Shown one piece after another: positions 22,791-51,300 of a DNA stretch of 54,249 bases. How positions within the stretch are numbered: position 1 is the first letter of the stretch; every line of letters begins with the position of its first letter. Made by a program: the position numbers and the translations under genes. The notes beneath the pieces were generated by a model. The model had not been told where the DNA came from, searched no databases, and was given only the letters and a program-made list of their open reading frames with translations. Where the stretch lies: positions 1 to 54,249 of IMG/VR virus record IMGVR_UViG_3300027741_000085; one strand, 5' to 3'. Source of the DNA: a virus (Duplodnaviria; Caudoviricetes).

Positions 22791-24275
22791 ATGGCCTCAT
22801 ATACCAAACTCAATGTTCAGACAGTATCCGACATGCTGTCGCAGAACTCCAATGCCCAAGTAACGGCATGGGTGATGCGCGCTTTGCAACTCGGAAAAGC
22901 ATCGTGTGTCTTTTATGACAACTTTATCGGGGGCACCGGCAGCGGTAAGCCCATTATTGAAATGTCCGACATGAACGTGAAAGCGGGTAACACGCTGGTC
23001 GTTCCTACGCTGGCCCGCCTCGGTGGTCCAGGTGTGCAGGGCAACGGTGAGCGCACCGGTCAGGAAGAAAAGATGCGTCAAGGCAGCTTTACGACCAAGA
23101 CAGGCCGCCACTGGTGGGGCACCGCGCTTGATAGCGTCGCCAAGAACGAAACCGTCATCGGGACGCAGTGGGATCTTCTCCGCAATGAAGCCCTTGGGCA
23201 GCTTTGCAATAAGGAGAAATCCGACACCATTCAGATGGAACTGATCAATAACGCCTCAGGTCTGAACACGATCTACGCGAACAACGTTGGCTCCGTCGAA
23301 AACCTGCGCTCCAAGGATTACTTCCTTACCGACACCGTCAGCGAAGGGCAAGAAGTCCTCGCCACAAACGCCGCTAAGGGGATGAACATCCGTAAGAGCA
23401 CCGCTGGCGCTCCTTATCGCTGCTTCACTTACTACCTCCCTCACTTGGGAGCGAGTGCGATGAAGCGCACCACGAAATACAAGGATCTCATCCAATTCGC
23501 GAGTGAACGTGGCGACTTGAACCCTGGCTTCACGGGTGACTTCGCCATGATCGACGGTTGCGGGATCTACTCCGATGAAGTGGAGGATCATGATGCGTAT
23601 GGTCCGGTGGGTTCTCCTTGCCTTCCTCGCGCCCGTTTGGGTGTGGCCATCGCTGCGGGCACTGGCACCTTTGATATTCAAGGGGGTGGCAGTGCGGAAG
23701 GTGCGGCGCTTACGGCTCCGCTTTACTTCCGTTGGTTCAACAATTCGCTTTGGAGCAGCTTCAACGTGACCCGTCGACAGGCGTCCACCTCGACCACGCG
23801 CTATGTGCTGATCAAGAACGTGACGGGCTCTGATGCGGGCAAGTTCGGGATGTATTCCTACACCACGAACAACGGGAATAAGCTGACCATCGTGAACCGT
23901 CTTGGTAGTGCGGCCTCGAGTGCGCGCGTAACCACGCTGGGCAACGTGACTTGGAACACAGGTGTGTGGAATGGTCTGCATACCGACGTTCACCCTGTCG
24001 GTTCCATCGTGATGGAGTGCAACAGCTACGGTCAAACGTTCTGCTATGGCTTCGGCCTTGGTGAAATGGCCGCCGTTGCCGGCCATGCGAACATTGACGG
24101 AACGCTCGGCATCGGTATCCGCACCGAGGAACACCGCAACCACAACATGGACCACGCCATTGGCTTGGAAACGGCTTGGGGTTGCGCGGTTACTCAGCGC
24201 ACGGACGGCCTCGCGAACAACTACATCCTGACGGTGAGCGCCTACAACCCGCCCGGATTACCTAACATCGTCTAA
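22791..24275 (+). CDS. Major capsid protein (DUF4043/N4-gp56-like) with a beta-rich insertion
   Basis: AGNTL.VP...RL.GPGV.G....GQEE.M and F.G....IDG..I motifs; position after the scaffold gene. Confidence 0.8.
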   Translation: MASYTKLNVQTVSDMLSQNSNAQVTAWVMRALQLGKASCVFYDNFIGGTGSGKPIIEMSDMNVKAGNTLVVPTLARLGGPGVQGNGERTGQEEKMRQGSFTTKTGRHWWGTALDSVAKNETVIGTQWDLLRNEALGQLCNKEKSDTIQMELINNASGLNTIYANNVGSVENLRSKDYFLTDTVSEGQEVLATNAAKGMNIRKSTAGAPYRCFTYYLPHLGASAMKRTTKYKDLIQFASERGDLNPGFTGDFAMIDGCGIYSDEVEDHDAYGPVGSPCLPRARLGVAIAAGTGTFDIQGGGSAEGAALTAPLYFRWFNNSLWSSFNVTRRQASTSTTRYVLIKNVTGSDAGKFGMYSYTTNNGNKLTIVNRLGSAASSARVTTLGNVTWNTGVWNGLHTDVHPVGSIVMECNSYGQTFCYGFGLGEMAAVAGHANIDGTLGIGIRTEEHRNHNMDHAIGLETAWGCAVTQRTDGLANNYILTVSAYNPPGLPNIV

Positions 24276-24343
24276 CGACGGTTTGATAATTAGTTGACGA
24301 TGTGAAGCGGTGCGGCGAAGGTCGCACCGCTTCCTTTGTTCTT

Positions 24344-24826
24344 ATGACGACTCCCACTATCACCTACGTCCTTGAGTGTCCTGATGCCCGTGTGAACGAT
24401 CCCGTCGAAGGGAAAAGCGGCAAGGTGTATGGGGTCTATTTGAGGGATGCGGTAACCAGCGTTCCTACGCTGCGGATGACAGCGGCACAGTTTGAGGAAG
24501 CGAGGAAAGATTTGTTTGGTTATCAGCGCAGGCATAACCACATCATCCCACGGGTCGAGATTGAAGGAAGTGAGCCTGAGAAGAAGGCTCCTAAAGAACC
24601 TGATCAGAAAAAGGAAAAGGAAGAACCAAAGCGTTCACACAAGAAAAAAACTTTACCGGAAGTTCCAAAATCACAGGATGGAGAAGCGGCATCTCACCAG
24701 TCTCATAATCTGGAGAACGAGGGTTCAAATCCCTCTCCTGTAACCCCTCCTCCTGCTGCCGCGCCGGCGCCAGCATCTTCTGCACCCTTAAAAACAACGC
24801 CTGACGGGAAGGTGAAGAAATACTGA
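24344..24826 (+). CDS. Hypothetical protein with a low-complexity C-terminus
   Basis: ATG at 24344; Lys/Glu/Pro-rich tail. Confidence 0.6.
   Translation: MTTPTITYVLECPDARVNDPVEGKSGKVYGVYLRDAVTSVPTLRMTAAQFEEARKDLFGYQRRHNHIIPRVEIEGSEPEKKAPKEPDQKKEKEEPKRSHKKKTLPEVPKSQDGEAASHQSHNLENEGSNPSPVTPPPAAAPAPASSAPLKTTPDGKVKKY
24672..24743 (+). tRNA. tRNA-Met(CAT), initiator-like cloverleaf, inside a CDS
   Basis: Acceptor CACAGGA/TCCTGTA with C1:A72 mismatch; D stem GAGA/TCTC; anticodon loop CTCATAA; T arm GAGGG-TTCAAAT-CCCTC; followed by CCC rather than CCA. Confidence 0.75.
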
Positions 24827-24842
24827 CCAAAACTAAGACTTC

Positions 24843-25775
24843 ATGGCTGCTACCTCTCCAGTTAAGCTACGGGACATGCTCCTTAATATGGTGGGAGTAA
24901 CCGATGTTTCAGCCCTTGATGTCATTGGCGCGGATACAAAAGATCAATATCTAAACCGTATTCAAAGCGACATAAATACGGCGCTGCAAAAACTGTATGC
25001 CGTGATGCCTGATCACGTTCTGCAACGGAATGATTTTAAAGTCATTTATCCACCTACAACACTCACCCTTACAGGATTGGGTGCTTATAATAAGTCATTT
25101 GTTAGCTCAACACCTTTTTCAGGTTGGATGAATGGTTGCACCATCCGCATTGATGGAGATCCCAATGACAACCGAATCATTGATGCTACGACCTTGGAAG
25201 CTCCTTACATGGGGACTTCTGGAACGCGCACCGCGACTGTTTTCTGTGACTGTATTCTTCCAACGAGCAACATCGCAAGTGTGGATGCGCCTGTGAGACT
25301 TGGCAGCCAACCTTATCCCGATTTGGTGCCTGTCGTCGCACGAGCTAATCTAATGGATAGCTGGTTTATTCCTGTCTGGAATACAGGAGGGCTAACGGCT
25401 TGTATTACCCGGCCCATTCGCCGTCCGCAACTTTACTTTGTGGAAGCGATGACTTCTAACAATGTGATCAAGCCTCGCATTTTATTGGATACCTTGCCGG
25501 AAGCTGCTTACCGTTTGGACTTCAATACTCATTTAGCTGCACCACGTTTTGAAGTAAGTGATTTAACGAGCACTACGCCGATTGATTTACCTTTAGGCTA
25601 TGGAGAGTCTATTCTAGAACCTTTGGTTAGGGCAGAGTTTTCTTCTTTTGAAGCGTTTAACGGTGATAGTAAAGCCTACATGAAAGCGGCTGAGGTTGCT
25701 CTTCAAACAGTAGGCAGCGTAGCCAAGTTTCAAACCCATGTAAGTAACTACACGCGGGTAAACCCTCACGAGTAA
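24843..25775 (+). CDS. Head-tail adaptor / tail tubular-like protein
   Basis: Position after the capsid; IN.ALQ, P..Y, P.AAY.L and P...LP..Y...L patterns. Confidence 0.55.
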   Translation: MAATSPVKLRDMLLNMVGVTDVSALDVIGADTKDQYLNRIQSDINTALQKLYAVMPDHVLQRNDFKVIYPPTTLTLTGLGAYNKSFVSSTPFSGWMNGCTIRIDGDPNDNRIIDATTLEAPYMGTSGTRTATVFCDCILPTSNIASVDAPVRLGSQPYPDLVPVVARANLMDSWFIPVWNTGGLTACITRPIRRPQLYFVEAMTSNNVIKPRILLDTLPEAAYRLDFNTHLAAPRFEVSDLTSTTPIDLPLGYGESILEPLVRAEFSSFEAFNGDSKAYMKAAEVALQTVGSVAKFQTHVSNYTRVNPHE

Positions 25776-26387: not shown

Positions 26388-27158
26388 ATGGCTGAGAAAC
26401 CACCCGGATTTCGCATGGAGACGACATCACCGCATAGCCGCGATGATCTTCTACATGTCCCTTTCCAAATGGTGGCGATGTCGCCTGATACCCGCCCAAA
26501 TTTGGGTGAGAAGCTAAAAGATATTCGATTTGATGCCAATGCGCGCCCAAGCATTTCTAAATTCTCGGATTGGGTGTTAGTGGAAATTGACAGCGGATCG
26601 CTGGTGTTCGGTCAAAACAATCTTCCTACGGCGGCTTTAGCGCTGGAACCAAGTGATACGTTACATGATCGAGATCATTGGAGCTGGCCGACGGTGATAC
26701 GCGGTCAACCGATTTGGCAACATATTATTGGCACAGGTGGAAACTACTTGGAGACAAGAGTCATTATTGATGAAGTGCCAGAGCAAACGTTACCTACGTT
26801 TTTCCTAACGGAAATCTGGTGGACCACTGAACCTTGGCCGCTGGAATTACTTAAAACAAAGCAACCTCTCACTTCTCCCGTGGTGTGGGGCTATCCCGGA
26901 GCGCGAGGAAGTAGGCAAGCACTCCATGAAACTATCGACACGCCCCCACTAACGATCACTTCTATACGCGGACAAACGGCACCGGTTCATATTCCTTCCC
27001 GTCGTTTTCCTGGCACAGATTTCAAGCATTGGACCCGTTACGTGGTGTCTGATAAACAGCCCAAGATTCGAGGCCGTTATCGCCGTGAACGGCGCACGGC
27101 TATTCCTCCTTACGATTCACGTAAATATCCTAACCCACCTTTTGATTTGAGTTCATGA
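26388..27158 (+). CDS. Hypothetical tail-region protein
   Basis: ORF track. Confidence 0.6.
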   Translation: MAEKPPGFRMETTSPHSRDDLLHVPFQMVAMSPDTRPNLGEKLKDIRFDANARPSISKFSDWVLVEIDSGSLVFGQNNLPTAALALEPSDTLHDRDHWSWPTVIRGQPIWQHIIGTGGNYLETRVIIDEVPEQTLPTFFLTEIWWTTEPWPLELLKTKQPLTSPVVWGYPGARGSRQALHETIDTPPLTITSIRGQTAPVHIPSRRFPGTDFKHWTRYVVSDKQPKIRGRYRRERRTAIPPYDSRKYPNPPFDLSS

Positions 27159-27925
27159 GTGACGGCTATTCGAGTGTAGAAGCCTGGCGACAAGCGGAGC
27201 AAGCGCCTTTTTTCATGGCCCCGAATCAGCGCCAAAAAGGCTTTGGTTCGCGGGTGTTTTTGCAAGCACAGACGCCGCAGGATGAATACCCCTTGGATGG
27301 GTGGGGTAACCCAGGCATTCCGGGTAAAGATGGCGTGTCAAGCAGTGGTGTGGATGGACTACCCGGAAAAGACGGAGTAGACGGAGCAGACGGGACGCCT
27401 TCCACGGTAGCAGGTCCAATGGGTCCACCGGGTTTAGCAGGCGCAAACGGAGCCGATGGCAACCCTTCTACGGTAGCTGGCCCCCCTGGAGATGCTGGTT
27501 CTCCAGGAACTCCTGGGAATCCATCAACAGTGCCGGGACCGCCCGGACCGCCCGGACCACCGGGAGCTCCTGGAAGTGATGGCGGACCCCCAGGCCCCCC
27601 AGGTTCACCTGGAGGCCCAGGAAGTGACGGAAGTCCTGGCGGCGCTGGTAGCCCAGGAAGTCCTGGCGGCGCTGGTAGCCCGGGAAGTCCCGGAGCGCCC
27701 GGAATAGACGGCACGGATGGAAGAGACGGCACGGATGGAAGAGACGGTGTAGGTGTGCCTTCCGGTGGCCATACCGGCCAAGTTTTACGCAAACTTGATG
27801 AATCTCCTTACACATCCGTTTGGGATGAATTGGGTAAAACTATCAACGTGGCAGTGCTCGCCAACGATGGGGTTACAACCATTATTCTACATTTTACCAA
27901 CGGCCTTTTAACCTCAACCTCATAA
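27155..27925 (+). CDS. Collagen-like fibre protein
   Basis: Long interrupted Gly-X-Y repeats, including GPP runs. Confidence 0.9.
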   Translation: MSDGYSSVEAWRQAEQAPFFMAPNQRQKGFGSRVFLQAQTPQDEYPLDGWGNPGIPGKDGVSSSGVDGLPGKDGVDGADGTPSTVAGPMGPPGLAGANGADGNPSTVAGPPGDAGSPGTPGNPSTVPGPPGPPGPPGAPGSDGGPPGPPGSPGGPGSDGSPGGAGSPGSPGGAGSPGSPGAPGIDGTDGRDGTDGRDGVGVPSGGHTGQVLRKLDESPYTSVWDELGKTINVAVLANDGVTTIILHFTNGLLTSTS

Positions 27926-31600: not shown

Positions 31601-33047
31601 CATGGACTATGAGAACGTCCCTTCGTGGATGGACCCTACGCAGTCGGCTTTGCCCCTGAATGCTAGTGACAACGCTCGTCATTGGGAAAAACTGCTAAAA
31701 AGCGCCACGTTCCCGTTCATCCGCTGGAACTACAACATGATGCGTCAAGTCTATCATCAGAGCTTTGGCGCGCTCATCAATGCCACGCAAGGCGCGCAAG
31801 AGGGCGACTGGAGCAAGGTGCGTTCTGAAGTGGCAAACCTCATGACGACGGCGGCTCTAACGGGTGTGGCTTCCTATCTTATTGGTGGTGGCGGTGGGGA
31901 TGATGACAAGGAGCTTTCTCTAGGCACAAATCAAGATGCTGAAGGTAAGTATCTGCCTAAACAACTGCGCAGTGGTAGCCGATTGAATTGGGCCTCTATT
32001 ATGCGTAGGCTTACGGGTAAGCCAGCTACAGATGACTATAGCGTTGAAGGTTTAGATCATAGTGCGAATGATTTATGGTATCGCTACAAACAAGACCCAT
32101 GGTTGCCTCAAGCCATCATCCTCGGTTTGCTTGCTCGAGGCCGTGCCGATGAAGCTTACAAAGCGGCTGGCGATCTGGGCACCGATTACTTTTTAAGTTT
32201 TGGTGTGATTGGGAATACTATTCCAGGTCTGCGCGCTGTTCTAAATCCTTATACGGCGGATCAGAACTATAGTTATGCAGCAACAGGCACCGCTATTGAT
32301 TTGGCCATCTCGCCGCTTGTGCCAACTCGGTTGATTCAACACATCAGTAAGATTATCGACCCTGTGACCCGACAGGAAGCACCGCGTGTGTTGCCTCGCA
32401 GTGAGGGCAAGACCAAGAAAGGCTGGGAGGATTATCAGCCTGGACCACTCGAAGCATTGAAGATGCGTATTCCAGGCATGAGCAAAGACTTGCCTGCTGC
32501 TGGCACTCTTACACAGGGGGAAGCGGGGAACTTTGATCCTGAAGCATGGTTACGCAATAAGACCAGCACGCTACGCACCCAGCTTAATAAAGGACTGATC
32601 ACGAAAGAGCAGTTCCGCCAAGCCGCCGGCGATGCCGTCAACCAAGCCAAGGAACTTGCCGCCAACAAGCTGAGCCCTCCCCAAGTAGAGAAGCTCTATG
32701 CCGACATGGGCATTAATCAGACTCCCGATGATAAAAAGCGGGTGAGCGGCGTTCCCATGATTCCTGAACTGCGCACGCTTCAGGATCTCGGCGTAGGCAA
32801 GGAGAGCGTGAGAACCTACGTCAGCAAAGATAGCAAAGGCCGTGATGTAACCAAAATTACCGCGCCAAGCCCTGATACAATAACTGTCGCCGATCCGCGC
32901 TTAGAAATCCTTAAAGCACTTACAGGAATTAACGTATCTTTGATCCCCACAGGGCGCGTGAAAGCTGCCGTTCAAAAAGGCGATTTCTACAAGACCCCGT
33001 GGAAACCTAAGCAGGCGTTGACGGGTAAGGATTGGTTCAAGAAGTAA
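28536..33047 (+). CDS. Giant polyvalent virion protein: N-terminal intein C-fragment, PolyVal-type kinase and large C-terminal region
   Basis: CVCIEV...YITDDGIVTHN/T at residues 1-46; GGQEH.VW...RVIK...DAHLANV...PFD kinase-like motifs; C-terminal region paralogous to the 4450-aa protein. Confidence 0.8.
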   Translation: MKTLDHLDWQQIISIEPDGEDECVCIEVTHPSKCYITDDGIVTHNTTVNTPSLQMGAAQENPNAALQDKAIRGIDEALYGDSRKENQQRRRGHTGNDARSFSRAALQDERRNKGAGGAREELARDTGATRREEAARLVDYARDNGFLIEKMPEQWKPYAEGDVGGQEHHVWIPEQGARVIKLTTLSKRGADIFGMNPVPYQGKWDLDTKGATAYRYLQRLEDGNQTFGDDHIVHGVWNDRGDVHLLTSQRAYDGELPSNLPEGLAAAEEAAESDRRTQDVAEAFAKQGFVALDNRTYYRPSDNTAVFDAHLANVMWVTGKSGVRRLVPFDVTTMHPVGKLKENLAQAAQAVAEPQRLYMAAAQAADELARINREAGAARVIKDELEEKGQPAKQMTGVKESAAAALRGIFAGKFDKMEAAARGLGDLVRGNDIEQHFSEAALNDYMDKVRQSVKESFGSPSYWHNRQNRKRLQRFSDTLLPVAARLNATGIDPTGFTFSDFDMRVGTIFESDLKKMNAKPGDMIPWKGASGMMEMLKVGPLIMDQGVNARSSKNGRYTLLRHMAADTQQIIYDHFKQEFPEGAAWLDQWIDPLLRDATQTGPGNVQVPVFNRHALLKSFNDWSPELKALFGSEPLPGITGMEGYTPDVMAQKGLINSIGAALNGNSYLNRFMSSARKFKAGDLREEGNVKNLFDGFTQRAMESHREKIRLKTRRDIIQKAARPANKVQPEDLRSGLFIPLDDTFKKLYEAHVIASGLDRAKFPVLTQSLNPDQKSALQKLFADMYQLYGNGMVIHRDIHRQLVLGAAMTQTENSLTKALSWIIGRRNRNVLVELGTYANNWRGNFVLQPVELMNRVNLAIVNGLTAPFSSKAKDEGELAARQVAELFKGFFADRRIFDLWTLNNGLGAGIGKIRPFVPQEVFGDGSNLRYDEDFRDKSVLGHLKNLDVGAAFLQGIRYGNIDTHPKMSNTYRLLRAEAAHVAARQKIPNAKREAFINDWMLNAHKDNPLAFLRAFKASQSRFMDYENVPSWMDPTQSALPLNASDNARHWEKLLKSATFPFIRWNYNMMRQVYHQSFGALINATQGAQEGDWSKVRSEVANLMTTAALTGVASYLIGGGGGDDDKELSLGTNQDAEGKYLPKQLRSGSRLNWASIMRRLTGKPATDDYSVEGLDHSANDLWYRYKQDPWLPQAIILGLLARGRADEAYKAAGDLGTDYFLSFGVIGNTIPGLRAVLNPYTADQNYSYAATGTAIDLAISPLVPTRLIQHISKIIDPVTRQEAPRVLPRSEGKTKKGWEDYQPGPLEALKMRIPGMSKDLPAAGTLTQGEAGNFDPEAWLRNKTSTLRTQLNKGLITKEQFRQAAGDAVNQAKELAANKLSPPQVEKLYADMGINQTPDDKKRVSGVPMIPELRTLQDLGVGKESVRTYVSKDSKGRDVTKITAPSPDTITVADPRLEILKALTGINVSLIPTGRVKAAVQKGDFYKTPWKPKQALTGKDWFKK

Positions 33048-33076
33048 ATAAAAGCTACGCCGTGCGGTGGCGTGCT

Positions 33077-33268
33077 GTTAGCAAATCTGTTAGCAGATCT
33101 CTCATTTTGCGCCTGCCTACCCTTTAAAAAGGGTGGCGGAATCGACGGGACTCGAACCCGCAACCTCACTCCTAAGTAAAATAGGTAGCGGTAAAGCCTT
33201 TATTTACTAGGGTTAGCTGACGTGACGTGATGGAAAACTCTTGACGTTCGTTAGCAAATCTGTTAGCA
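33077..33268 (-). other. attP: 3' half of tRNA-Asp (33134-33167) flanked by integrase arm-type repeats
   Basis: Minus strand GAGGTTGCGGGTTCGAGTCCCGTCGATTCCGCCA; 19-bp direct repeat GTTAGCAAATCTGTTAGCA at 33077 and 33250. Confidence 0.8.
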
Positions 33269-33349
33269 TGGCTTGCCCTCAATTCTCCCCAAAGAATCAC
33301 GTTTCAAATCAGGAACGATGCTTATGTTTGATCTAAAAATCTAACGCTT

Positions 33350-33793
33350 ATGACGGAACTTCCTACACCGCCTAAAATTAATCAGAACCCTGAAACTCTG
33401 AATTTTGAAACTGCTGCCGTTGAAGAGTGGGCGCTCCGAAATGATTCTTTGTGGCAGAATAGTCAACGCTATTGCGAACTGATGGGGATACCTGAGCAGG
33501 GATACTATCGTCTTATCGCAGCCCGCCAACTCGTGGAACTCTACCGACTTAAAAACGAGATCATTAAAATGATGGATAGAGCACCAACCATTTCTTTGAA
33601 CTTCCCCGGCTTAGAAGAGCCTATGCAAAAGATCGCTCTGGATTTGGTAGCGACACTTAACGCATACGAGGGTGGTGGATCAAGTATTGCTAATCAGGGG
33701 CAAGCCTTGGATGGGTTTAGTGCATTGGCTGGGTTTGTGAATACGGCCAAACGAGCACGCACGGCGTTAAGTGAGAAAAAAGACGGCAACTAA
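33350..33793 (+). CDS. Hypothetical protein
   Basis: ORF track. Confidence 0.65.
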   Translation: MTELPTPPKINQNPETLNFETAAVEEWALRNDSLWQNSQRYCELMGIPEQGYYRLIAARQLVELYRLKNEIIKMMDRAPTISLNFPGLEEPMQKIALDLVATLNAYEGGGSSIANQGQALDGFSALAGFVNTAKRARTALSEKKDGN

Positions 33794-36127: not shown

Positions 36128-37285
36128 ATGTTTACGCTGATTCCACGCGGGAAGAAAGGGTTGTTCTCGGCTGTTTGGTGGGAGAAGCAGCCGGATGGGA
36201 CGCTGAAACAGCAGTGGAAGGCTACGGGGACGAGTAATCGGAAGCTGGCTAAGGAGATGGCGGAGCTATGGGTGGAGGCTTCGCAGGAAAAGCGTATTTC
36301 GGAACGATTTAAACAACGCACTTTGGAACTGACTCGACGGCTTTCGGGGCGGTCGGGATCGTTGACGGTTCGGGATTGGTTCAAGAAATGGATTGAGGAA
36401 CGCACGCCCGAGGTGAGGCCTTCAACGCTGGCGTATTTCAAGGGGAAGACACAAGCGTTCATGGATTACCTGGAGTCGGTGAAGATGGCGGATGCGGATC
36501 TCGGAGCCATTGATGCGCGGCATATCCAGGGGTTCCGAGATGCGGACCTGAAGCGAGTGACGGCGGCCACGGTAAATCATTCCCTGAAGTGCTTACGGAT
36601 GGTGTTCAAGGCGGCGTGCGAGCGGGGCTTGATCATGGAAGATCCGACAAAGACGGTGAAGACGTTTAAGAAAAGCACGCAGGAACAAGAGGGCGATGAG
36701 ACGCGCCGCGCTTTCGAGGTGGCAGAACTTCAGGCCGTGCTCAAGGTGTGTAATGAGGAATGGCAAAGCCTCGTGATGTTTGGGGTTTACACGGGTCAGC
36801 GCCTCCATGACATCGCGAAGATGAAATGGAAGCAAGTGGATGTGGCTACGGGAATGATTCATTTTAAATCCAGTAAGACGCGCCGCATTGTGCGGTGTCC
36901 GCTCCCTGCGCCCTTGCATGACTGGCTCCTCACTCAGACGATGCCGGATGATGAGCGCGCGCCCGTGCATCCGCTGGCGTTCAAGGCTGGTTCAAGCACG
37001 TTGTCTGGGCAGTTCGGTGATATTTTAGCGGCGGCTGGACTGCGGAAAAAGATTCCCCGGACAGCCTCAAAAGATCGAGTGCTTACGGGCGACCGACGAA
37101 CCAAGAACGAACTCAGCTTCCATTCGTTGAGACATACCTATGTCACTTGGTTGAAGATGGCTGGCGCATCATCTGCCGTGGCCATGGACGCCGTGGGGCA
37201 TGATTCCGCTGGAATTAATGAGCATTACACGCATGTGGATGATGACACGAAAAAGCGCTTTGCGGACTTGCTGCCAAGATTGTGA
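36128..37285 (+). CDS. int: Phage tyrosine integrase
   Basis: TGQR, K, HSLRH and GH...HY catalytic residues; SAM-like core-binding domain; no IntI-specific insertion. Confidence 0.92.
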   Translation: MFTLIPRGKKGLFSAVWWEKQPDGTLKQQWKATGTSNRKLAKEMAELWVEASQEKRISERFKQRTLELTRRLSGRSGSLTVRDWFKKWIEERTPEVRPSTLAYFKGKTQAFMDYLESVKMADADLGAIDARHIQGFRDADLKRVTAATVNHSLKCLRMVFKAACERGLIMEDPTKTVKTFKKSTQEQEGDETRRAFEVAELQAVLKVCNEEWQSLVMFGVYTGQRLHDIAKMKWKQVDVATGMIHFKSSKTRRIVRCPLPAPLHDWLLTQTMPDDERAPVHPLAFKAGSSTLSGQFGDILAAAGLRKKIPRTASKDRVLTGDRRTKNELSFHSLRHTYVTWLKMAGASSAVAMDAVGHDSAGINEHYTHVDDDTKKRFADLLPRL

Positions 37286-39381: not shown

Positions 39382-42300
39382 ATGCCTAAAGCACCTCGGA
39401 CCCTGGATGATCTTGTCGCTAAAGACCCACTCTCGCAGGGGCTCAAGGCGTCACAACAGCACTCGCTGACGATTGGCGCTCCCCAGGCTGCCGCGCATTA
39501 CGAAAGGTTGGCTTCTCAACGAGCCTCGACGCTGGCGTCTAAGTTACCACCGCCCGCAGCGCCGCAGGCACCTAAAGAACCGACAGCGGCGCAACTGGTG
39601 CGCCAACAGAACGCGGCGACAAAGCAAGAGAACACGGCGACACGTCGGCAGTTCCAGAATGATGCGGTGGCATGGTTCACGACGGCAGAAGGTAAGCACA
39701 TCCCTATCACGGCACCCTCGGGCGGGCGACTGGTCAAAAAAGATCAGACGCCTTATTACTACGATGAAAAGACGGGGCAACCGTATCGCGTGATCGGTAA
39801 TAAAGCCGTGGGCGTAAATGAGCTTGGCGCAGTAAGCCGGAAGGCGAAGCCGGACGGGCTGGTGTATGAACACCTCGCCCAAACGAACTCGAGTAAAGAT
39901 GTGCCCGTGGATGTGAATGAGCAGAATCCACCGGGCATGAAGGAGTTTGAGCAAGGGCTCAAAGAAGATCAGGAGCAAGTGACAAAGGGCGTCGTTAGTG
40001 CAAACGCCAGCGTGACAGCTCACTCCAAAGCAGTCACCCAAGCCAAACAGGATCTGGCCGTCATGAACAAGATCGGCGCGGGAGATGATCCCGTTCATGC
40101 GGCGCTCGTGGAGAAGTATGGGCAAAATCCCGCTACGGAACACGATGAAAGTTCGGGTGAATACACCCCTACCGAACCCACGGACCCCGAAGAACTCGCA
40201 AAGAAAAGGCTGGGTGATATTTACACGCTCGCCAAAGAACAGAAAGCGCAAGCCATCATCGCTCTGAACACAGCGCAAGCGGCTAAGGATTCGTTCTTTG
40301 CAAAGAAAACTGAGCGACTCGCCACGGCGCGGGAAGGCTTCGCTTATGAAGCACGGGAACGCCTTCCCGGAACAGGGAGACTTGCGACTGCTGCCAATGA
40401 TCAGATTATCGGCGTGGTGCCACCGCCACCGCTGCCTGTAACGAAGGAAGATGCGCTGGACCCGGTGCGCGCCGCTGCACAAGCTGCTATCCGCACGGTG
40501 ACCGATGTGTCAGGGCTGAATCAGCGTGTGGATAAGGATGCGCTGCACTTTGATTTCCGTGGGATGCCAACACTTCCGCCGCTTCATATCAAAACGCCAA
40601 CATCGGCCACGGATTCAGCACCAGACAGCGAAATCGATACCGATACGGCCCCCGCTCCTGAAGCACCGATTGCCTATTCCACCTCCGTTCCTGACACCGC
40701 GCTTTTACCCAGAGCCGCTGAATTGCAAAGCTACGCAAAGGCCGCGGGTAAGACAGACTTCCATGCGACTCCCGGCTTGCAGATGCAGGACGACGGGAAA
40801 CTGATGGTGGACATGGAGCCACCAGCGCCCGCAGAAGAAGCGCCTGCGCCTTCCTACCCTGAGAAGCTGTTGAACATGGCGAACGATGCCGTAACAAAAG
40901 CGCAGATGGCCCCATTCGGAGCTGCCGCTGGTTATGTGCAGGACGGTATTAAGGCGCTTGGAGAGGGAATCACGAAAGCCTTTGACCCGAAAACTGGCAA
41001 GCCTTCGCTCGTGCCGACCGAACGCGGGCAACGGGTGTATGATCAATACGGCATTCCTTCGCTGGAAATGCATTGGCAGGGGTCCGAAAAGCCCGGTGCG
41101 CCTGTGTCCCCTAGCCTATTGGCGAACGATCCTTATCACGGATTGCCTGAGTATGCCGCCGCGCCGCGTGACTTGTTCCCTGCGCCTGATTCCCCTTCCC
41201 TGAAGGGGATGTCTGAAGAGGAGATTGCAAAAGCACGCGAAGACGTGACGAATCAATGGCGGGCAAATCGCTGGGAACCAACCAAGACAGCGGACTTCCT
41301 CACACGTTGGAAAGCGGGAGACGATGCCGCGCGCCGTGAGATGATGGCGGAAGTGGATTCACGCCAGAACGATCTTCGCCCTGAACTGCGCCGCTTGGAT
41401 ACCAAGATGCTCTGGGAGACGGGGCAAATCTCCAAGCAGGAAGCGCGCACTTTAGAAAACATCGAAACCCAACGCCTGCCCGGACTGCCAGACTTGGATA
41501 TGCAGTGGGCTGTGAAAGGCGATAAAAACGCCGATGGACCAGCACGGCAGAAGTTCATTGAGCAGTATCTTCGTGATAATCGCAACACCGTGGACTTTGA
41601 TGACGCCACGTTCACCGCGCAGCGGGACAAGCTGTTGGCGGGGGTGCCAAGTGACCTTATCAGCGATGCAGGGCAGTGGATGAAGAACACCACCGCCGGC
41701 GCATTGGGTAGCAGCCCTGGGATGTTGATTGATCAACCTGTGAACATCCTTGTCGCGGGTGCTCATGCCGTGGTCGGTGCCTTGCAAGGCAAGCCGCTGA
41801 GTGGTGGGCAGAAAGACTTGCTCGCCGAGGACAACAAGCGCATGGGCTTGATCGCTGGGCAAACGGGCGATTCCCTCTATAACATGTATGCGCAGACTCG
41901 CGAACGTCTGCGCACGTTGACGCCGGACGGCGTGAATCGATTTGATGAGATGCGTCAGGATCTCGCGGGCATTCTTGCGGATATTGACAACGGGAAGCGC
42001 CCCACGGAAGCCGAGTTCCAAGCCGTGCGAAACCGCATCGCGGACCGAGCCTTAGTCGTGAACGGGGTTGCTGACAAAAGCATCCCACAAGAGCGCGCCC
42101 GTGCTTACTACGACATTGGAAACTTAAACTCCCGTGTCGGTGGCATCTTCGCGCAATACAATGAGACTCGTGACCCGAATCTCAAAGACCAGATGATTAC
42201 GGAGTTGCTCGCCCATCCAGGCGAGATGCAGCGCCGAGATCAGGCTTCGCAATACGCTGACCCGACGATTGCAAAAGAAAGCTGGCTCCGAACCATCGGC

Positions 42301-45300
42301 GAGGCCGAAGAAGCGGATAAGCTGGCGCGGGATCGCTCGGGTTTCATTAATCAAATTACTTCCGGCTATCGCTCCGGCGGTGTGGCTCCATTGACTGAGA
42401 CTGCCGTGGAAATGGCGAGCGCTGGCTTGGAAGGCTGGTTTGCGAAGGCTGCGGAACGCGGGCTTGGGTTGGCTGAGAAAGCCACGATGGAGACAGGGCG
42501 CAAAATGGCCGCTGGTGAAGCCTTTGAACATTGGTGGGAAAAGCTGGGCATCAAACACGCCGCAGAAGATGCGCCGCTTACGCTCGGAGATAAAGCGCGT
42601 AACCTTGCGGTGAGTGCGGCTAAATCTGCGGGCGGGGTAAGCCTTACGGAAGGTGCGGAGGAAATCGTGGGTGGCTTTGGGCAGAAAGAGAATACGGACA
42701 AAGATATTGCGATGCAGGGCTTGGGCGGGGCTTTCGGTGGGCTTGCGCTTATGCCGTTCTTCCATGGGCAGCATTTAGTATCTACAGGAGTAGCTAGCGG
42801 GTTGAATGCCGCTAGCTCCTTCCTTGATAATCGCCGTCAAGTGCTTGCCGATAAAGCAGCGGTGGCGAAGATCGTCGAGACACACAATCGTCTCAATCCA
42901 AGTGACCCGATTGACTTCGACCTCGCGCAGCAGGCTCGTGCTTACCTGCCTTCTCATGAAGTGGTCACGGGTGCGATCAATGCCGCCACTCAGCAAATGA
43001 TGAATGCGGCGGCGCTGCCTGAAGGTCCAGTGAGAGATAAAGCTTTACAAAAAGCCAATGACCTCTGGCATAGCACGTTCAACTTTCAATTCCAGAACGA
43101 GCAAGCTGCGCTGAATGCAGCCAAGGAAATCAACGGCCTCAAAGACCAAGGGCCGGAAGGCGAAGCCCTGCGTAACGTGGCGGATGCTGCCTTGCGGGCA
43201 GTGCAGGACGGCACGCTGACGCCGGACCAATCAGGATGGCTCGCAAACTACCATCTCCCCACGGGTGAGAAGGCAGCTTACTATGCCGAGGGGACCGACA
43301 ACACGGCGCGGCTGAAGGAAATCAACCAGCGCATCACGGAGCTGGAGAAGCAACGCGATCAAGCAAAGCAGAAAAACAAGCTCTCCATCGGTGACTTCAC
43401 GGGCAAGCCGCAAACAATCAAATACGACGCCAGCCAGTGGAACGCCGCGAAAAGTGGCGAACTTGAGTCGCTCAAGAAAGAAGCAGAATCGTCAACTAAT
43501 GTTCCACATGGAACACCGGACAAAGGGCGCTGGATCTTCACGGATGCTTTCCGTAATGCCGTGGCGGAAGTCGCCCCGCAGACTGCGGCAGCGTTCTTTG
43601 ATCAGACCGAGAACCAGCAGCTTGACGCGCATCAACAATTAGTCAACAATGCCACGTCTGGAGCGCCGACAGATACTCAAGCTGCTAAAGCAGCTTCGAG
43701 GGCAGGCGCAACGCCTGGGACGGGCGCGAACTTCATGGGAGTGGAGGGCGTTCCGTCTCAGGCATCTTCTACTTCTGCGCCCTCAGCACCCCAATCTCCG
43801 GCTGCTAGGTCTTTGGTTGTTTCTCCTAGCAGTGGGGAAAACGTAGGAGTCAGTGCGCCGGAACGTGGTTCGGCGGCTGATGTTCGGGCTTCTGCGGTGG
43901 GGAATCCGGTTTCCTCCACTGGCTCCTACACCTTCCCACTGAGCTACACGAGCAAGGAAGGATTGGAGGTAAAGAACACGCCGACTATCAAAGCGGCATC
44001 CCTCAGTGAGGCGAAATCAAAGCAACAGTCTTACGTGGCAAAACTTGAGAAGGTAGGACACACGGACGTCGTGGCTGGTGAACTCTCGCCAGTAATGTCG
44101 AAGGCAACTGGTAAGCAAAGCTTACAAGTTCAAGAACAGGAACAGGAACAGCAGCCTTACATTGCTTTGGATTGGCCACAGCAAGCACAATCATGGAAGA
44201 TTGAGACGCTAAAGGATCTGCTGACGAATGTAGCCAGCACTTACGGCTACGCGCTCGCAGATACGGGTATTCCAACGGGGATGCATGACCGTTGGGGCAA
44301 GGCGCTACATTGGGGCACCAATCTTTACGACAAGCTTGGAGATCGTCCCCCTGGCATTTCCCCTCAAGCGGAAACCATAGGCCATTGGATTGATAACCTG
44401 AGCAACTCAGGAATGAAAAGGGAAATCCTTTCACGCATGAGTGAAGGGGTAAACGCGGGCAGTGTCACGGGCGGTTATCTGCATCGCGTGTGGTTCGGTC
44501 ATGATGCGCTTAGTAACATGGGCGACATAGTGAGCAAGTTCGGTGTTAGCTCTGTGCCTCACTACTTTATGGCGTTGTTCAAGGACAGCACCACAAAGAG
44601 CGGCATTCCTCTCCCTGGGGTGCAGATGCTCGTGCGCTCCGGTGCCGTGTCTGACAAGCTGGCGACGAAGTGGATGTCCGTGACCCTGCCCGGCATGTTC
44701 GGCGCTGGCATGGCCATCTATGGCACGCTCCGCCTTGCCCGAACGCTGGAAGGTGGAAAGCTCACGAAGACTAAGGCCGTGCTCGCCACGCTCGGCGTAG
44801 GCTTCAAGGTCATCGGTGGGGCCCTTCATGCGCAGCCGTTCCTTGTGCTTTCAGGGCTGGCAGATGCCGCGCTTTTGATTACGCACTTAGGTGACATCAA
44901 GCGCGTTTTTGCGGCTACCTCCAAAGAGGAATTGAATACTCACGCGGCAGAAGTGAAGCAGGAATTTAAGCAATCCAGTCAGAGTCAGCCTGTGGCAAAT
45001 GATAAAAAAAATGTTACATTAAAAGATGATCTTTATCCCAAAAACCATGAGCCGGGAAGAAGCTCTGAAAGCTCGGTTGAACACGTCCACGGGCAAGACC
45101 GTGGAGCAAGTGACACGCAGCGCGGACGAGCACCACTGGCAGACGGCGGAACCCAAGTATCTAATCGCGCCGGACAAGTTGCAGGAACCGAAACGCCATC
45201 AGCACTTTCAAGAGGTAATGACGGCACGCTTCAAGGGCAATCTACCGAAGGATCTCGGGAAGGGACCGCCGCCACCGGTGGCTTACCTGCCCTTAATTCT

Positions 45301-48300
45301 ACTGCCTTGGAACAGGGTGCGCCCCAAGAAGTAAACGCTGCAACTGACCAAGAAGAACAAATTCCAGAACCCGCAATTGATGAAGGGGGTGGGAAAGTCG
45401 TTCCAAGTCGCACAGCGCCTACGAACAATAAGGAAAACAGTGTTCCGGCAGTAAAGCGCAAGGACAAGATTAAACTGACACACAAGAACACGTTTGAGGC
45501 GCTCAAGGAGCATTTCCAACCGGGAGAGATTGTTAACGATTATCTCGGGAAGAGCCGGGTGATTTCATTTACTGGAACCAATGTGGCTGATTGGTCCGTC
45601 AAAGTTCAAGGCTTGACCAAAGAAGGTGAAGACCTACCCAATGATGTCCGCACTCACAGGACATTCCCCAGTGCCAAAGAATTACAAATAGCTCTGAACA
45701 AGCCGCCTTCAGAAAGCGAAGCCGTAGATCAGCGCGCCCCTACCAACGCCTCACCTGAAACAGTAAAGAGTGCGAAAGATGAAGCGTATCTGAAAGCCGC
45801 TCAAGCTGGAGACCTTACGACTGCGCAGGATATGGTGGATGCAGCAGCAAAAGAGGCTGGCTACAATATTCCTGTCTGGCATGGCTTGAACTATGGAGGG
45901 TCCAAAGAAATCGAAGGGCATTCTTTTGACTTTGAACGTGGACGTTATGGGAAAGGTGCTTGGGTTACGACTTCTGAAGAAGTGGGCAACCGTTACGGAC
46001 CTAAGAATAAGTTAAAGTTATTTCTTAAAGCGGATCGAGTTTTCACCCAAAAAGACTACGAACAGCTACCCGAAAATGATCCCATTAAGCAGGCGATTGC
46101 CCGCAACAACGCTAAGCCTGAGACGCTCTCCACAGTCATTGATTTCTCAGAAGCGGAACCTCTTTTAAAAGCAAGAGGCTATGATGCTGCTGCGCACACG
46201 CGCCCCGGTTCTATGGATGGTGCACCGTCAGACGCGCTGCACACAGCCTACTTTGTTTTTATTAGTCCATCTCAACTCAAATCTGCAGACCCTATCATCC
46301 GCGATGGATCTGGTAACATCATCCCACTGAGCGAACGCTTTGCCAGCGGACCGGGGGAGCGCCGTGAACAAGAGCTTACTGGCAATCCTATAAGCACTCT
46401 TGAAAAGCAATCTTTTTCGGGTTGGTCAATGGTTGATAAAAATGGCGGAAACAGTGGAAATAGTGCCTCGGATGTGGTTAAATTTGAGGATGTCCCCTCC
46501 CACTCCCTCACTGACCAACAGCGTGACAACCTTGCCGCCCTTGCGTCAATCTGGCGTCAAGACGCCGGCGCAACTGGAGAGACTGGAGCGTTCACATCGC
46601 GCCGCATATCGTCCGTTGCCGACGGACGAGGAAGATCCCTTGTTGAATTCACTCAGGCATTTGAAGCGGCTACAGGAAAGCGAATTGAATGGGTAGATAC
46701 CCCTGCTGAATTGCCACTTCCTTGGAAGGCGGCGGTGAGCCCTCAGCGAAGCAACACAATCTTTGTCCATTCCCGTGCTCCTGGGAATGTGCTAGCCCTG
46801 ATCGGGCATGAGTGGGGCCACACTTTGAAGTCGCAGAACCCTGCTCTCTATCGGGATCTGCAAACGGCACTAGCAAAGCAAGCCTCCCGTGAGGATGTTA
46901 AAGTGCTCCGTAGTGATTTATCAAAACATTACCGGCGGGACATTCTTAACACAGAGCTGACGAACAACGTCATTGGAGACTTCTTCACTGATCCTGAGTT
47001 CTGGAGGCAAGTAGGCAAAGAAGAGCCAAGTCTGCTGCACCGCGTGGTCCAAAGCCTTCAAGACTGGTTCACGGGACTTGTGGCCAAGGTGAAAAGTCAG
47101 TGGGGCATGGAGAAGTATGCGAAGAGCCTTGATGACGCCCGCCAAGAAGTTGTGGCAGCTTTCACCCAAGCAGTAAGAGAAGGGCCTTATTCAGAACTTT
47201 CTAACGTGAGTGATGATGAGCTTGTTCGCAGTGGTATAACGGAAACGGATTTGGCCGCGCATGATGCAGCCACGTCTCCGCACAATAATCTTCCTGAACC
47301 TACACAGGCTCAGAAAGAAGCGGGCAATTACAAGGTTGGACGCTTGCGGCTTGGAGGCATGAATATTTCTGTTGAGAATCCTGCTGGAAGCACTCGCAAG
47401 GGCACAGATGGTAAAGGTAAGCTGTGGTCCCGTGAGATGAAGAGTCACTATGGCTATTTCCGTGATACCCAATCACGCGATGGGGACCACATGGATGTCT
47501 TTGTCAAACCCGGCACTTCGGCAGATTACAATGGCCCCGCCTTCGTCGTAAACCAAATTGACCCTAAGACCGGGAAGTTTGATGAACACAAGACTATTCT
47601 TGGTGCTCAGACACCAGAAGAAGCCCGTGCTCTTTACCTAGACAATTACGATGCGACTGGACCGTCTCGCATCGGCAGCATCGCCCGTTTCAGCACGCTA
47701 GAGAATTTCAAAAAATGGGCTACAGAGAAGCAACGCATAGCTCCTGCAAAAGAAGGTATGGAGGCAAAGCGTTCGAGGCGCTTGAGCGACAACGCCGAGA
47801 TGCCGACTGCGGGGGTTAGTGAAACTAATAATCATGCAAAAGAACTCGCAAAACCAAACCTAGAGAGCTATTTTAACTATCATGGACTCCCATCCTCCGA
47901 ACACGCCGCCGCCGAATCTTCCATCAGAGGATCTTTTGCCGCCTCCCCTACCCCCTACGAAGAAACAGCCGCTCGAGTATCCTCCAACGGAGGAGTGGAT
48001 CGGGGAGCCGTCAGAAGCGCCCGAACACATCAAGCAGCAGTTTATCAAGGATTGATCAATGGAGACATTGAAGGAACGGCCAAGAGCATTTCCGATGGGG
48101 TTCCTTTGTCATCCCTCATGCCACAATTCATTGGTCGTGAGATTTCGGGCTTTGATATTCGCGGGGCAGTCATCAACTCGCCTAAGGAGCTAGCACTTCA
48201 TGCCTTAGCCCACCGCACACCATATTTCGAGTCGGTCAAAGTCGTCGTTGTGGACAAAGCCCATCAGGTCATTCACAGCCAAGTAGTGCATGTAGGCTCT

Positions 48301-51300
48301 CTTAATTACTCAGTTGCTTCTCCGCAGAGCATTCTAGGAGTAGTCAACGCGGCGCGGATGATGGCTCCTAATTCCGAGATTGGAGGCTTTCTAGTTTCAC
48401 ACAATCATCCGAGTGGCGACCCAGCTCCGAGCAGCGAAGATGTGACCTTCACCAAGCGCATGAAGCAAGCTTCTGATGCTTTGAATATCCCGTTTATCGA
48501 TCATGTCATTACCAATGGACGGAAATATTACTCTTTCTTAGAAAATGATAAATTGGATGATTCAGCAAAGGGAACAAAAAATGATTCATCTTCATTGGGA
48601 TTGGAGACGAAGCACCCCTATGGAGAATTGGCAGACTTTGAAGCTATCCCCGTTGAAGACCGACTAAAGGTTGCGCAACCGGTGGACTCGGCATCCATTA
48701 TTTCCACGCTCCGCACGGCTGACCCTGGCTATGTTCACGCTCTGCACTTAGACACAAGAAAAGGACTCATTGGAGTTACGAGGCATTCAATCGGTTTATT
48801 AGATGACGATCTGGCACGTTCGATCGTGAGCGATACCCAAATGATGGGTGCTGCATCGTTTGCCATATCATTCCCTCGTGAGGATATAAACGTCCAAGCA
48901 ACGGTTCAACCAGTCGTAAAGGGCGTCTATAAAAATCTAACGCTTAAACAACGTTCAGTTGTTGGGGCTCTTATGAGAATGGCTAAACTGATGGGAGTAT
49001 CATTTGTTGATGCTCATGCGTCGAAGATCGGTTCTTTTTACGAAAATGGTTTAATGGAAGCAGTCGCAGAGCACATAGCTGGTGAAGAAAATGTAGTGCG
49101 AGAAGATGGGCCGGAATATACCTCCACACCAAGCGGGGAATCACCATTTGATGAAGACCCTGAGGTAGCTAAAGCCTGGCACGCCTCGAAGGAGCAGGAA
49201 AAACTTACAGACGCTGCTAATGAGTGGAGCCGCATACGCATGGAGGCAGGAAAGCGCCGTGTAATTCAGAGCGAGATTGAGGCAGGTAAAACAACGCAGA
49301 AGCCGGAGACTGGCATGAATGAAGGGCTAGCCACTCTCGGGCGCGCTTTCTTTGCAGGGAAGTTTGATAAGCTGGAAGCAGCGGCTCGTGGGCTTGGTGA
49401 TCTAGTTCGCGGCAATGACATCTCTCAGCACTTCAGTGAGGCCGCCCTCAATGATTACATGGACAAAGTGCGCCAGTCGGTAAAAGAGAGTTTCGGCTCA
49501 CCCTCTTACTGGCACAATCGGCAAAACCGCGCCCGGATGCAGGAGTTCCTAGATAATCTACTACCAACGGCAGCGCGATTGAATGCCGTCGATGTGGAAG
49601 ATGGGGAGTTTAAGTTTGCCGATTTTGACATGAGGGCAGGCGTTATCTTTGAGAATGATGTCAACCGTATGCAGGCAAAGCCGGGGGATGAGATTCTTTG
49701 GAAGACTGCCTCAGGGATTCCAGAAATGCTGAAAATAGGTTCTATGATTATGGAGGATGGGAAACCATCCCAGCCAGGGCAAAGGCGCTTCATGTTAACA
49801 CGGACAATGTCTGAAAGCACTCAGAAGACACTTTATGATCACTTCAAGCAAGAGTTTCCTGAGGGTGCTGCTTGGCTGGATCAATGGATTGATCCCCTGC
49901 TACGTGATGCCACGCAGACGGGGCCGGGCAACGTGCAAGTGCCAGTGTTCAATCGTCACGCTCTACTCAAGAGCTTCAATGACTGGTCCCCTGAGTTAAA
50001 GGAACTCTTTGGGGAACAACCGCTGCCCGGAGTTACTGGCGTGGAAGGCTACACGCCGGATGTGATGGCGCAGAAAGGACTGATTAATGCCATCAGTGCC
50101 GCGCTCCATGGTAACAGCTACTTGAACCGCTTTATGAGCAGTGCTCGCAAGTTCAAGGGCGGAGAACTCAGAGAGACAGGCAACGTTAAAAACCTTTTCG
50201 ATGGTTTCACGGGCCGCGCGATGGATTCGCAGCGCGAGAAAATCCGATTCAAGACTCGGCGAGACATCATTGAGAAGGCTTCCAAATCCAAAGATAAAAT
50301 AGCCAAAGAAAACCGCAGTCAGTATGTCAGTCTCGACGACACGTTCAAGAAGCTCTATGAGGCGCACGTAATCGCCTCTGGTTTGGACCGCACCAAGTTC
50401 CCCGCGCTTACACAGTCGCTTAATCCCGAGCAACGGAGCGCACTTGTTAAACTCTTTGGGGAAATGTATAAAAAATACGGGCAAGGCCTTGTGATCCACA
50501 AGGATATCCACCGCCAACTGATGCTTGGCGCGGCTATGACGCAGACTGAGAACAGTGCGATTAAGGCGCTTCAATGGATCATTGGCCGCCGGAATCGGAA
50601 CATGCTTGTGGATCTAGGCACCTATGCAAAGAACTGGACAGGTAATCTGATTTTTCAGCCTGTAGAGCTGATGAATAGGGTTAATCTCGCCATTGTGAAC
50701 GGGTTAACCGCACCTTTCAGCAGCACCGCACAGCAGGAGGGTGAACTTGCTGCACGGCAGGCAGCGGAACTCTTTAAGGGATTCTTTGCAGACCGCCGCA
50801 TGATGGATCTCTGGACGCTGAATAACGGTCTCGGCGCAGGCATCGGCAAGATTCGCCCTTTTGTTCCTCAGGAAGTTTTCAGTGAGGGTAATAACCTCCG
50901 CTACGATGAGAGTTCCCAAAACAAGACGTCATGGGAGCATTTGAAAAACTTCGATGTAGGGGCCGCGTTTCTGCATGGCATCAAGTATGGGAACATTGAT
51001 ACCCATCCCAAAATGAGCAATACCTATCGGCTGCTCCGCGCCGATGCCGGTATGGTGGCCGCCCGACAGAAGGTGCCAAAAGACCAGCGTGAAGCTTTTA
51101 TCCAGAACTGGATGCTGAACGCACATAAGCAACATCCCGCCGAGTTCCTTCAGGCGTTCAAGGCTAGCCAATCCCGCTTTGGAGATTATGAGAACGTCCC
51201 CTCATGGATGGACCCAACACAATCTATTCTTCCGATTGATTCCTCTGACACCCAAAAGCAGATTGAAAAGCTGCTAAAGAGCGCCATCTGCCCGTTCATC

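Follow-up and report, generated by a model that had tools for sequence, protein, structure and literature searches.

Transfer RNA (tRNA) genes of phages normally lie between protein-coding genes, and annotation pipelines reject open reading frames (ORFs) that overlap a tRNA as false calls. What is to be made of a complete tRNA that sits on the sense strand of an ORF that itself looks like a genuine gene? The question is raised by IMGVR_UViG_3300027741_000085, a linear virus record of 54,249 nucleotides (nt), all of which was analyzed and is referred to below as the window. In it, a 72-nt tRNA-Met with a CAU anticodon (24672-24743, + strand, from C1 to discriminator A73) falls inside a coding sequence for a small protein of 160 amino acids (aa; 24344-24826, + strand), directly after the major capsid gene. 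Here the overlapped ORF appears to be a conserved gene with a conserved end past the tRNA. From the sequence evidence we consider it reasonably probable, although well short of certain, that this is a functional phage tRNA gene lying in frame within the part of a conserved post-capsid gene that encodes a disordered tail.

That the tRNA is real is confirmed. ARAGORN calls a tRNA-Met with anticodon CAT at 24671-24746, and Rfam RF00005 matches over model positions 1-71 of 71 with 58.3 bits (gathering score 29; E-value 4.5e-10). These are the sole ARAGORN call and the sole Rfam match above the gathering score in the 54,249 nt. A previous description made from the letters of the DNA (the sequence-only reading) had listed four arms, a CAT anticodon, a C1:A72 mismatch, and a TTCAAAT T-loop, all of which are present by ARAGORN and cmscan; it had also pointed to a very low covariance score as the result to look out for, and the score is high. 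In the cmscan alignment the four arms are regular and the only non-standard pairs are C1/A72 and U31/U39. The T-loop is UUCAAAU, and the anticodon arm (CCAGU-CUCAUAA-UCUGG) has one G:C pair and the U31-U39 mismatch. The discriminator A73 is followed by CCC, so that CCA is not encoded, as had been noticed earlier, and position -1 is U. The universal tRNA positions and the CAU anticodon are all intact, and the cloverleaf is retained in the minimum free energy fold of a 192-nt context.

We attach practically no weight to the idea that the arrangement is an artefact, either an assembly chimera or a chance cloverleaf. Nothing but the odd location speaks for it, and it is refuted by the Rfam E-value and by a 267-nt contig from another sample and study that covers 24521-24787 with 0 differences. 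This contig shows presence only, but it is independent and spans both junctions, and therefore the junctions are not an assembly artefact. No direct repeats flank the tRNA, and thus there is no insertion scar.

Counted to its discriminator, the tRNA takes up exactly 24 codons (72 nt), and it therefore leaves the reading frame unshifted and uninterrupted. The ORF, which may start at 24302 (GTG) or 24344 (ATG) and ends at 24826, is open straight through it, and this is the one frame of the three on the sense strand that is open across the tRNA. The overlapping peptide is exactly SQDGEAASHQSHNLENEGSNPSPV, as previously quoted, and the low-complexity flanks and the upstream capsid gene (by PHROG) are likewise as described. 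The encoded protein begins with a folded N-terminal domain (residues 1-75; 24344-24568, +), which carries the family motif PVEGxSGKxYG ... DLFGxxRRH, followed by a K/E/P-rich low-complexity tail that includes the motif KRSHKKK (residues 76-109; 24569-24670, +). The 24 codons that overlap the tRNA (residues 110-133; 24671-24742, +) come next and are disordered by prediction, and 3′ of the tRNA there is a P/A-rich tail with a basic C-terminus (TPPPAAAPAPASSAPLKTTPDGKVKKY, then the stop; 24743-24826, +). The leader of the ATG at 24344 is pyrimidine-rich, as for other genes of the phage.

The protein matches no family in Pfam or PHROG. When residues 1-80 were searched exhaustively with phmmer against 1.84 billion representatives, four small homologues were recovered (P0002, P0005, P0009, and P0010; E-values 4e-12 to 2e-4), to which a profile search added four more (P0012-P0015; 1e-16 or better). 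Of the 11 phmmer hits, six were long proteins (P0003, P0004, P0006-P0008, and P0011) with partial or multi-stretch matches, and these were left out. A word-seeded protein search with the window ORF returned only itself, and with P0005 likewise only itself. The N-terminal domain, the low-complexity tail, and a C-terminal basic cluster occur in all nine family members (the window ORF plus its eight homologues), and in the window the basic cluster (DGKVKKY) is encoded 3′ of the tRNA and in frame. This conserved end past the tRNA speaks against a coding sequence that ends upstream, which had been raised as a possible way out. We therefore take the ORF, on the strength of these comparisons, to be a real, conserved gene.

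Structure prediction with AlphaFold2 from the nine-sequence alignment gave residues 1-60 predicted local distance difference test (pLDDT) values of 84-93 and showed strands and a single helix there. From residue 75 on, the values are 48-66, with no secondary structure, and they are about 48-53 for the tRNA-coded residues 110-133. Foldseek found nothing in the PDB at an E-value of 0.001 or below, and there was no usable match in the protein atlas. By this model the tRNA-coded peptide would be a hydrophilic linker that a tail predicted to be disordered could tolerate.

The order of genes around the ORF is also found elsewhere. At the locus that encodes P0010 (L082), the only one in which synteny of a homologue was checked, a scaffold-like gene, the capsid gene, the small gene, and the next gene follow each other as in the window, and the two capsid proteins are 43% identical. 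Capsid-seeded scans of IMG/VR and the JGI metagenomes gave relatives at only 31%-38% capsid identity. In seven of the seven examined, from among L003-L013, the small post-capsid ORF has a window-like layout; these ORFs are not counted as homologues (hhalign E-value 0.16). ARAGORN found a tRNA in none of the eight IMG/VR loci scanned (L003-L010), a scan that left out the metagenome loci L011-L013.

Codon usage offers a separate view of the frame. With a codon-frame model for which 16 long window ORFs served as the training set, and 2000 stop-free shuffles of each segment as controls, the ORF frame is favored in every segment. The N-terminal domain scores +27.8 bits (matched by 3/2000 shuffles), the tail before the tRNA +17.6 bits (0/2000), and the tail after it +9.8 bits (40/2000). 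The last of these contains 15 consecutive codons that all have C as their second base, with variation at the third.

These results bear on the possibility that the tRNA works and the frame is incidental. In that case tRNA processing would be efficient, the truncated N-domain protein would be the product that matters, and the sequence 3′ of the tRNA would be a spacer that happens to be open. About 27 codons are all that must stay open past the tRNA, chance alone leaves 43% of the dinucleotide shuffles of that flank open, and the codon test for the flank reaches only about p = 0.02. Moreover, in L080, which holds the tRNA judged nearest by eye, the tRNA is wedged just behind the upstream gene, 3-4 nt past its stop, as is normal. 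Against this stand the basic C-terminal cluster, found in all nine members and 3′ of the tRNA in the window, the third-position variation of the proline and alanine codons past the tRNA, and a homologue (P0005, below) that is open through a tRNA-compatible segment and has a similar ending. On balance we judge an incidental frame unlikely, while granting that it merits serious consideration.

How does the location compare with that of other tRNAs? Among 46 comparator rows from the nearest tRNA family, no corresponding frame stays open for more than 24 codons upstream of the tRNA, versus 128 in the window. When all frames were considered at 62 comparator sites, the longest through-reading frame extended 69 codons upstream, in L080, where the true upstream gene is in another frame and has already stopped. 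No comparator tRNA was found within a long through-reading ORF. Some GenBank coding sequences do touch a similar tRNA (in Pan5 and Brochothrix A9); these are end overlaps, most likely resulting from annotation, and were set aside. The open-access literature that was searched contained no description of a phage coding sequence with a complete tRNA nested on its sense strand.

A candidate second instance comes from P0005. MAFFT aligns a stretch of this protein without gaps to the tRNA-coded peptide of the window; ahead of this stretch it has KKSHKKK where the window has KRSHKKK, and in both proteins TPP and a similar C-terminus come next (P0005 ends ...LLTADGKKKIF, that is, DGKKKIF vs DGKVKKY). 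For any such peptide it can be asked whether the 20 pairs and 15 conserved bases of the cloverleaf could be jointly satisfied by synonymous codons in the register of the window. The window peptide scores 35/35, and residues 142-166 of P0005 score 33/35 (18/20 pairs and 15/15 conserved bases). The maximum was 29 among 11,124 25-mers from the phage's own proteins, 27 among 5,000 shuffles of the P0005 tail, and 28 among 5,000 shuffles of the segment itself. The anticodon CAU, U8, G18, G19, and the T-loop are all still possible in P0005.

In the tRNA register, the window and P0005 peptides have 9/25 residues in common. Because P0005 differs at 16/25 residues and yet 18/20 pairs are feasible, the pattern points to selection on the RNA fold and not on the peptide. 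Two pairs (columns 12:22 and 49:63) are dictated by the amino acids on either side, differ from the window on either side, and are still complementary. Thus a second lineage probably shares the tRNA-in-gene arrangement, as far as a protein sequence can tell.

What kind of tRNA the window encodes is a further question. In bacterial tRNAs, A11:U24 in the D-stem is regarded as specific to initiators, and G2:C71 and C3:G70 are formylation determinants. The window tRNA matches Escherichia coli metY (initiator) at 50/72 positions, metT (elongator) at 34/72, and ileX (Ile2) at 35/72, the comparison with tRNA-Ile2 being one of overall identity alone. It has an initiator-type body, with the CAU anticodon, the C1xA72 mismatch, A11:U24 (D-stem GAGA/UCUC), A73, and the anticodon and T loops of metY, unlike E. 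coli metT and ileX, which have C11:G24. An elongator tRNA-Met was considered and rejected, because it would have a paired 1:72 and a pyrimidine11:purine24 in place of C1xA72 and A11:U24. As for formylation, C3:G70 is present and A2:U71 replaces the formylation-type G2:C71. In the initiator triplet 29-31:39-41 there are A29:U41, G30:C40, and U31/U39, so that only one of the three G:C pairs is found. The label "tRNA-fMet-like" given by the sequence-only reading thus holds for the acceptor, D, and T arms and fails for the anticodon stem, where the shortage of G:C pairs had already been seen. Judged by its sequence, the molecule has a body of the initiator type and an anticodon arm that is avoided in cellular initiators, and because the triplet is incomplete, we do not file it as a canonical initiator.

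The closest relatives of this tRNA are viral. Its 5′ half yields a 24-letter pattern that is present in 45 IMG/VR stretches (L020-L064), and ARAGORN calls a tRNA-Met at 44 of them (the copy in L030 is cut by the end of the locus). Most of these copies are in arrays with tRNA-Gln, tRNA-Ser, and a second tRNA-Met. The same pattern is found in 0 cellular contigs among 185,579 species-representative genomes. Taken together with MT838775.1 (L001), the 45 stretches hold a virus-specific, initiator-like tRNA-Met family in its own right, with G1 or C1 mismatched to A72, only two G:C pairs in the anticodon stem, and variation concentrated at anticodon-loop positions 32, 37, and 38.

The anticodon arm of the window tRNA has a different distribution. 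The exact 17-nt arm (CCAGUCUCAUAAUCUGG) is found at 17 other viral loci (L065-L081), 16 of which hold an ARAGORN tRNA-Met across the match, and the other arms of these tRNAs differ widely. Another pattern scan of cellular genomes was empty; it required a GGAG D-stem, so the arm could still occur in other cellular tRNA types. No other copy of the 23-mer formed by the T-arm and acceptor exists in IMG/VR, and blastn of the tRNA against E. coli genomes gave no match.

Compensatory change, which the sequence-only reading had suggested checking in homologues, was evaluated in 18 distinct sequences (the window tRNA and 17 related viral tRNAs). Across these, 94.4% of cells are paired and 1:72 is unpaired in 18/18. 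Three pairs (2:71, 28:42, and 51:63) are changed on both sides, in all cases through the window sequence. As many double compensatory changes were matched by 1/500 shuffles, and slid controls gave 0-1 such pairs.

This evidence bears on another explanation, in which the tRNA is a relic that is inactive in translation and has been kept either as linker code or as a ribonuclease P (RNase P) signal that separates the capsid-proximal message from the downstream genes. The anticodon stem is indeed weak and atypical for an initiator by the figures of PMC13092985, CCA is not encoded, and A2:U71 stands where the E. coli initiator has G2:C71. However, neither CAU nor any universal position has been lost, and the score amounts to double the Rfam threshold; the changes relative to related tRNAs are compensatory; the occurrence of the same anticodon arm in 16 ARAGORN tRNA-Met among the 17 viral loci argues for a recurrent, selected form; and the residue differences of P0005, with most pairs still feasible, argue for selection on RNA. 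We find a relic decidedly unlikely.

If, as we favor, the tRNA gene functions within the coding sequence, the late transcript could have two fates. Ribosomes that read through would produce the 160-aa protein, whereas processing that came first would release the tRNA. In bacteria, RNase P matures the 5′ end of tRNAs, the 3′ end is processed by RNase Z or exonucleases before the CCA-adding enzyme acts on it, and processing of the kind proposed in the sequence-only reading (RNase P/Z) would be expected here as for any tRNA-shaped transcript in bacteria. RNase P would cut on the 5′ side, where position -1 is U, and a 3′ processing enzyme would cut at the other end. The CCA-adding enzyme would complete the molecule, as only CC follows A73. 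Cutting would leave an upstream piece of mRNA with no stop codon and place the downstream genes on a separate piece. The dual-coding tRNA that had been suggested from the letters is supported, by inference, from the covariance score, the compensatory changes, and the conserved basic C-terminus in frame 3′ of the tRNA.

The released tRNA would supply Met-tRNA in late protein synthesis, and we hypothesize that it would most likely serve as an initiator when the host initiator tRNA is depleted or attacked. PMC3017606 describes E. coli initiators whose three G:C pairs had been mutated and which became active in initiation once cellular initiator tRNA was in short supply. Initiator tRNA is a target of cleavage by VapC-type toxins, and PMC10264068 contains the proposal that altered anticodon loops let phage tRNAs escape the anticodon nucleases of the host. 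A decoy for such nucleases had also been put forward from the sequence; because every feature of a working tRNA is kept, a working tRNA, possibly nuclease-resistant, seems to fit better than a pure decoy.

A bolder version can be imagined, in which the tRNA is an excisable 24-codon cassette that couples the release of an attack-evading tRNA to the ratio of isoforms of the post-capsid protein in two diverged lineages. RNase P and a 3′ endonuclease would cut the tRNA out of the late message in a race with ribosomes. The protein would be made either at full length, with the basic C-terminus, or truncated at residue 109 on a message with no stop, and a third isoform, shorter by 24 residues, might arise if the 3′-OH and 5′-phosphate ends were rejoined. 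The initiator-type tRNA would escape a host attack on initiator tRNA, and two or more diverged lineages would have retained the arrangement. As a whole we regard this version as speculative and rather unlikely.

Several observations weigh against the reading of a functional tRNA nested in a coding gene. No RNA run contains the stretch. There is no tRNA in L082, the closest relative with DNA, despite the same gene order. The best scores of the seven other homologues in the cloverleaf test are 25-27, within the control range, so none has a tRNA-compatible peptide. The tRNA of P0005 is deduced from a protein sequence alone; its DNA was not found in IMG/VR, GenBank phages, or plasmids. The codon-frame test is not fully specific, because the tRNA segment itself scores positive (+8.6 bits; 33/2000 shuffles match), and the post-tRNA flank reaches only about p = 0.02, as given above. 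The fold energy of the tRNA alone is unremarkable (z -1.44). Finally, its initiator function is uncertain, because canonical initiators require three G:C pairs in the anticodon stem and this 4-bp stem lacks two of them. In a 2026 survey (PMC13092985), 4-bp anticodon stems are found in 0.2% of bacterial initiators (82/50,849) and in 27.3% of bacterial elongator tRNA-Met genes.

The setting of the locus in the record, for which CheckV estimates 69% completeness, is that of a phage structural module. The runs that contain the window DNA are freshwater metagenomes, and terminase, portal protein, and major head protein are all encoded in the window (by PHROG). The major capsid protein gene (22791-24275, +; PHROG 334 major head protein, E-value 2.4e-11) lies directly 5′ of the small ORF. 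Between its stop and the small-gene start, a consensus scan placed a terminator-like hairpin of 13 pairs (9 of them G:C) followed by a T-rich tract (24304-24343, +), which suggests that the tRNA is carried only by read-through transcripts; such sites are fewer than expected from shuffles, and the hairpin is a lead only. Promoter-like sites were also fewer than in shuffles, and the scan found none inside the ORF that could belong to the tRNA. The next gene of the module, for a protein of 310 aa (24843-25775, +; from the ORF maps and tblastn to L003-L013), starts 17 nt beyond the stop codon of the ORF that bears the tRNA and has syntenic counterparts in the relatives.

Elsewhere in the window there are a collagen triple-helix repeat protein in the structural module (27155-27925, +; PF01391, E-value 4e-14), an HNH endonuclease domain (53219-53920, -; PF13392, 3.8e-8), and a weak match to a YdaS-like helix-turn-helix, under the Pfam cut-off (2326-2748, -). 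A single ORF of 4450 aa (39382-52734, +) contains an InPase domain (PF18823, 3e-44, residues 2642-2780) and a RadC-like JAB domain (PF04002, 4e-23, residues 2940-3055), and has no Pfam match outside these two. Among 25 gene starts inspected between 6535 and 39382, 24 are ATG and several leaders are pyrimidine-rich. A Shine-Dalgarno sequence precedes none of the 25, which points to a host with initiation that is independent of such sequences.

A tyrosine integrase is encoded at 36128-37285 (+; PF00589, E-value 2.8e-18), and therefore the phage is probably temperate. This raises the thought that the tRNA serves lysogeny, by replacing a host tRNA destroyed by integration (tRNA-dependent lysogeny, as described in PMC10865867, where the phage tRNA would have the isotype of the lost host tRNA and the common core would be only short), and the pairing of an integrase with a single tRNA gene is in keeping with it. 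However, there is another candidate for the phage attachment site (attP). In the gap at 33047-33350, reading by eye revealed a tRNA 3′ fragment (about 33125-33170, -), with a T-arm (GGTTCGAGTCC), a 7-nt acceptor strand, and discriminator G plus CCA, followed by a hairpin; Rfam gives it only a weak tmRNA 3′-end match (E-value 0.27). It resembles an attP core through which the phage would integrate into a tRNA gene of its host, and it might reveal the host's identity. The fragment spans the T-arm and acceptor and is thus more than a short core. Its length would suffice for rebuilding the host tRNA, and its discriminator G and differing acceptor strand set it apart in kind from the Met tRNA with A73. 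The tRNA at 24672, in contrast, is part of the late structural operon, and the ORF around it contains no promoter-like site that could serve it separately; this too speaks against a role in lysogeny. We consider that role very improbable. The tRNA was also considered, and rejected, as the attP fragment itself, given that it is a full cloverleaf (1-73), 11 kb from the integrase, and inside the structural operon; the fragment at 33125-33170 fits that role better.

Phage tRNA genes and overlapping coding are each already known, and what the sequence evidence appears to support here is their nesting in frame. Should both the tRNA and the protein be produced, these 72 nt would be under joint selection as RNA structure and as protein, and each transcript would be either translated or processed, providing a natural system in which ribosomes and RNase P compete. 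The tRNA also adds to a little-described class, the virus-specific initiator-type tRNAs with non-canonical anticodon stems.

The intergenic, initiator-like tRNA-Met of phages (45 from IMG/VR and that of MT838775.1) have the same 5′ half as the window tRNA, with 1:72 unpaired, the GAGA/UCUC D-stem with A11:U24, A73, and A:U at 29:41, and the MT838775.1 copy is identical to it at 59/72 positions. However, 44 of the IMG/VR copies and MT838775.1 lie beside tRNA-Gln, tRNA-Ser, or a second tRNA-Met, whereas the window copy is alone, inside a 160-aa gene, and differs from them in having U31-U39. With E. coli metY the window tRNA shares C1xA72, A11:U24, A73, the loop CUCAUAA, and the T-loop UUCAAAU (the 50/72 identity given above); unlike metY, it has one and not three G:C pairs, U31-U39, A2:U71, a 7-nt D-loop, and no CCA. 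The viral tRNA-Met that carry CCAGUCUCAUAAUCUGG have the same arm, which the window tRNA joins to an initiator-type body. In the E. coli tufB operon and the tRNA clusters of phage T4, tRNAs are co-transcribed with mRNA and released by RNase P, so that, as proposed for the window, one transcript gives tRNA and message that are separated by processing. Those tRNAs are outside coding sequences, whereas that of the window is inside one, in frame, so processing would destroy that frame. Overlaps of tRNA and protein genes in mitochondria, which are mostly short or doubtful, and transfer-messenger RNA (tmRNA), which is a dedicated RNA, resemble the window in that a tRNA-like RNA and a coding function share sequence; tmRNA, unlike the element described here, is not a tRNA nested in a gene of a structural module.

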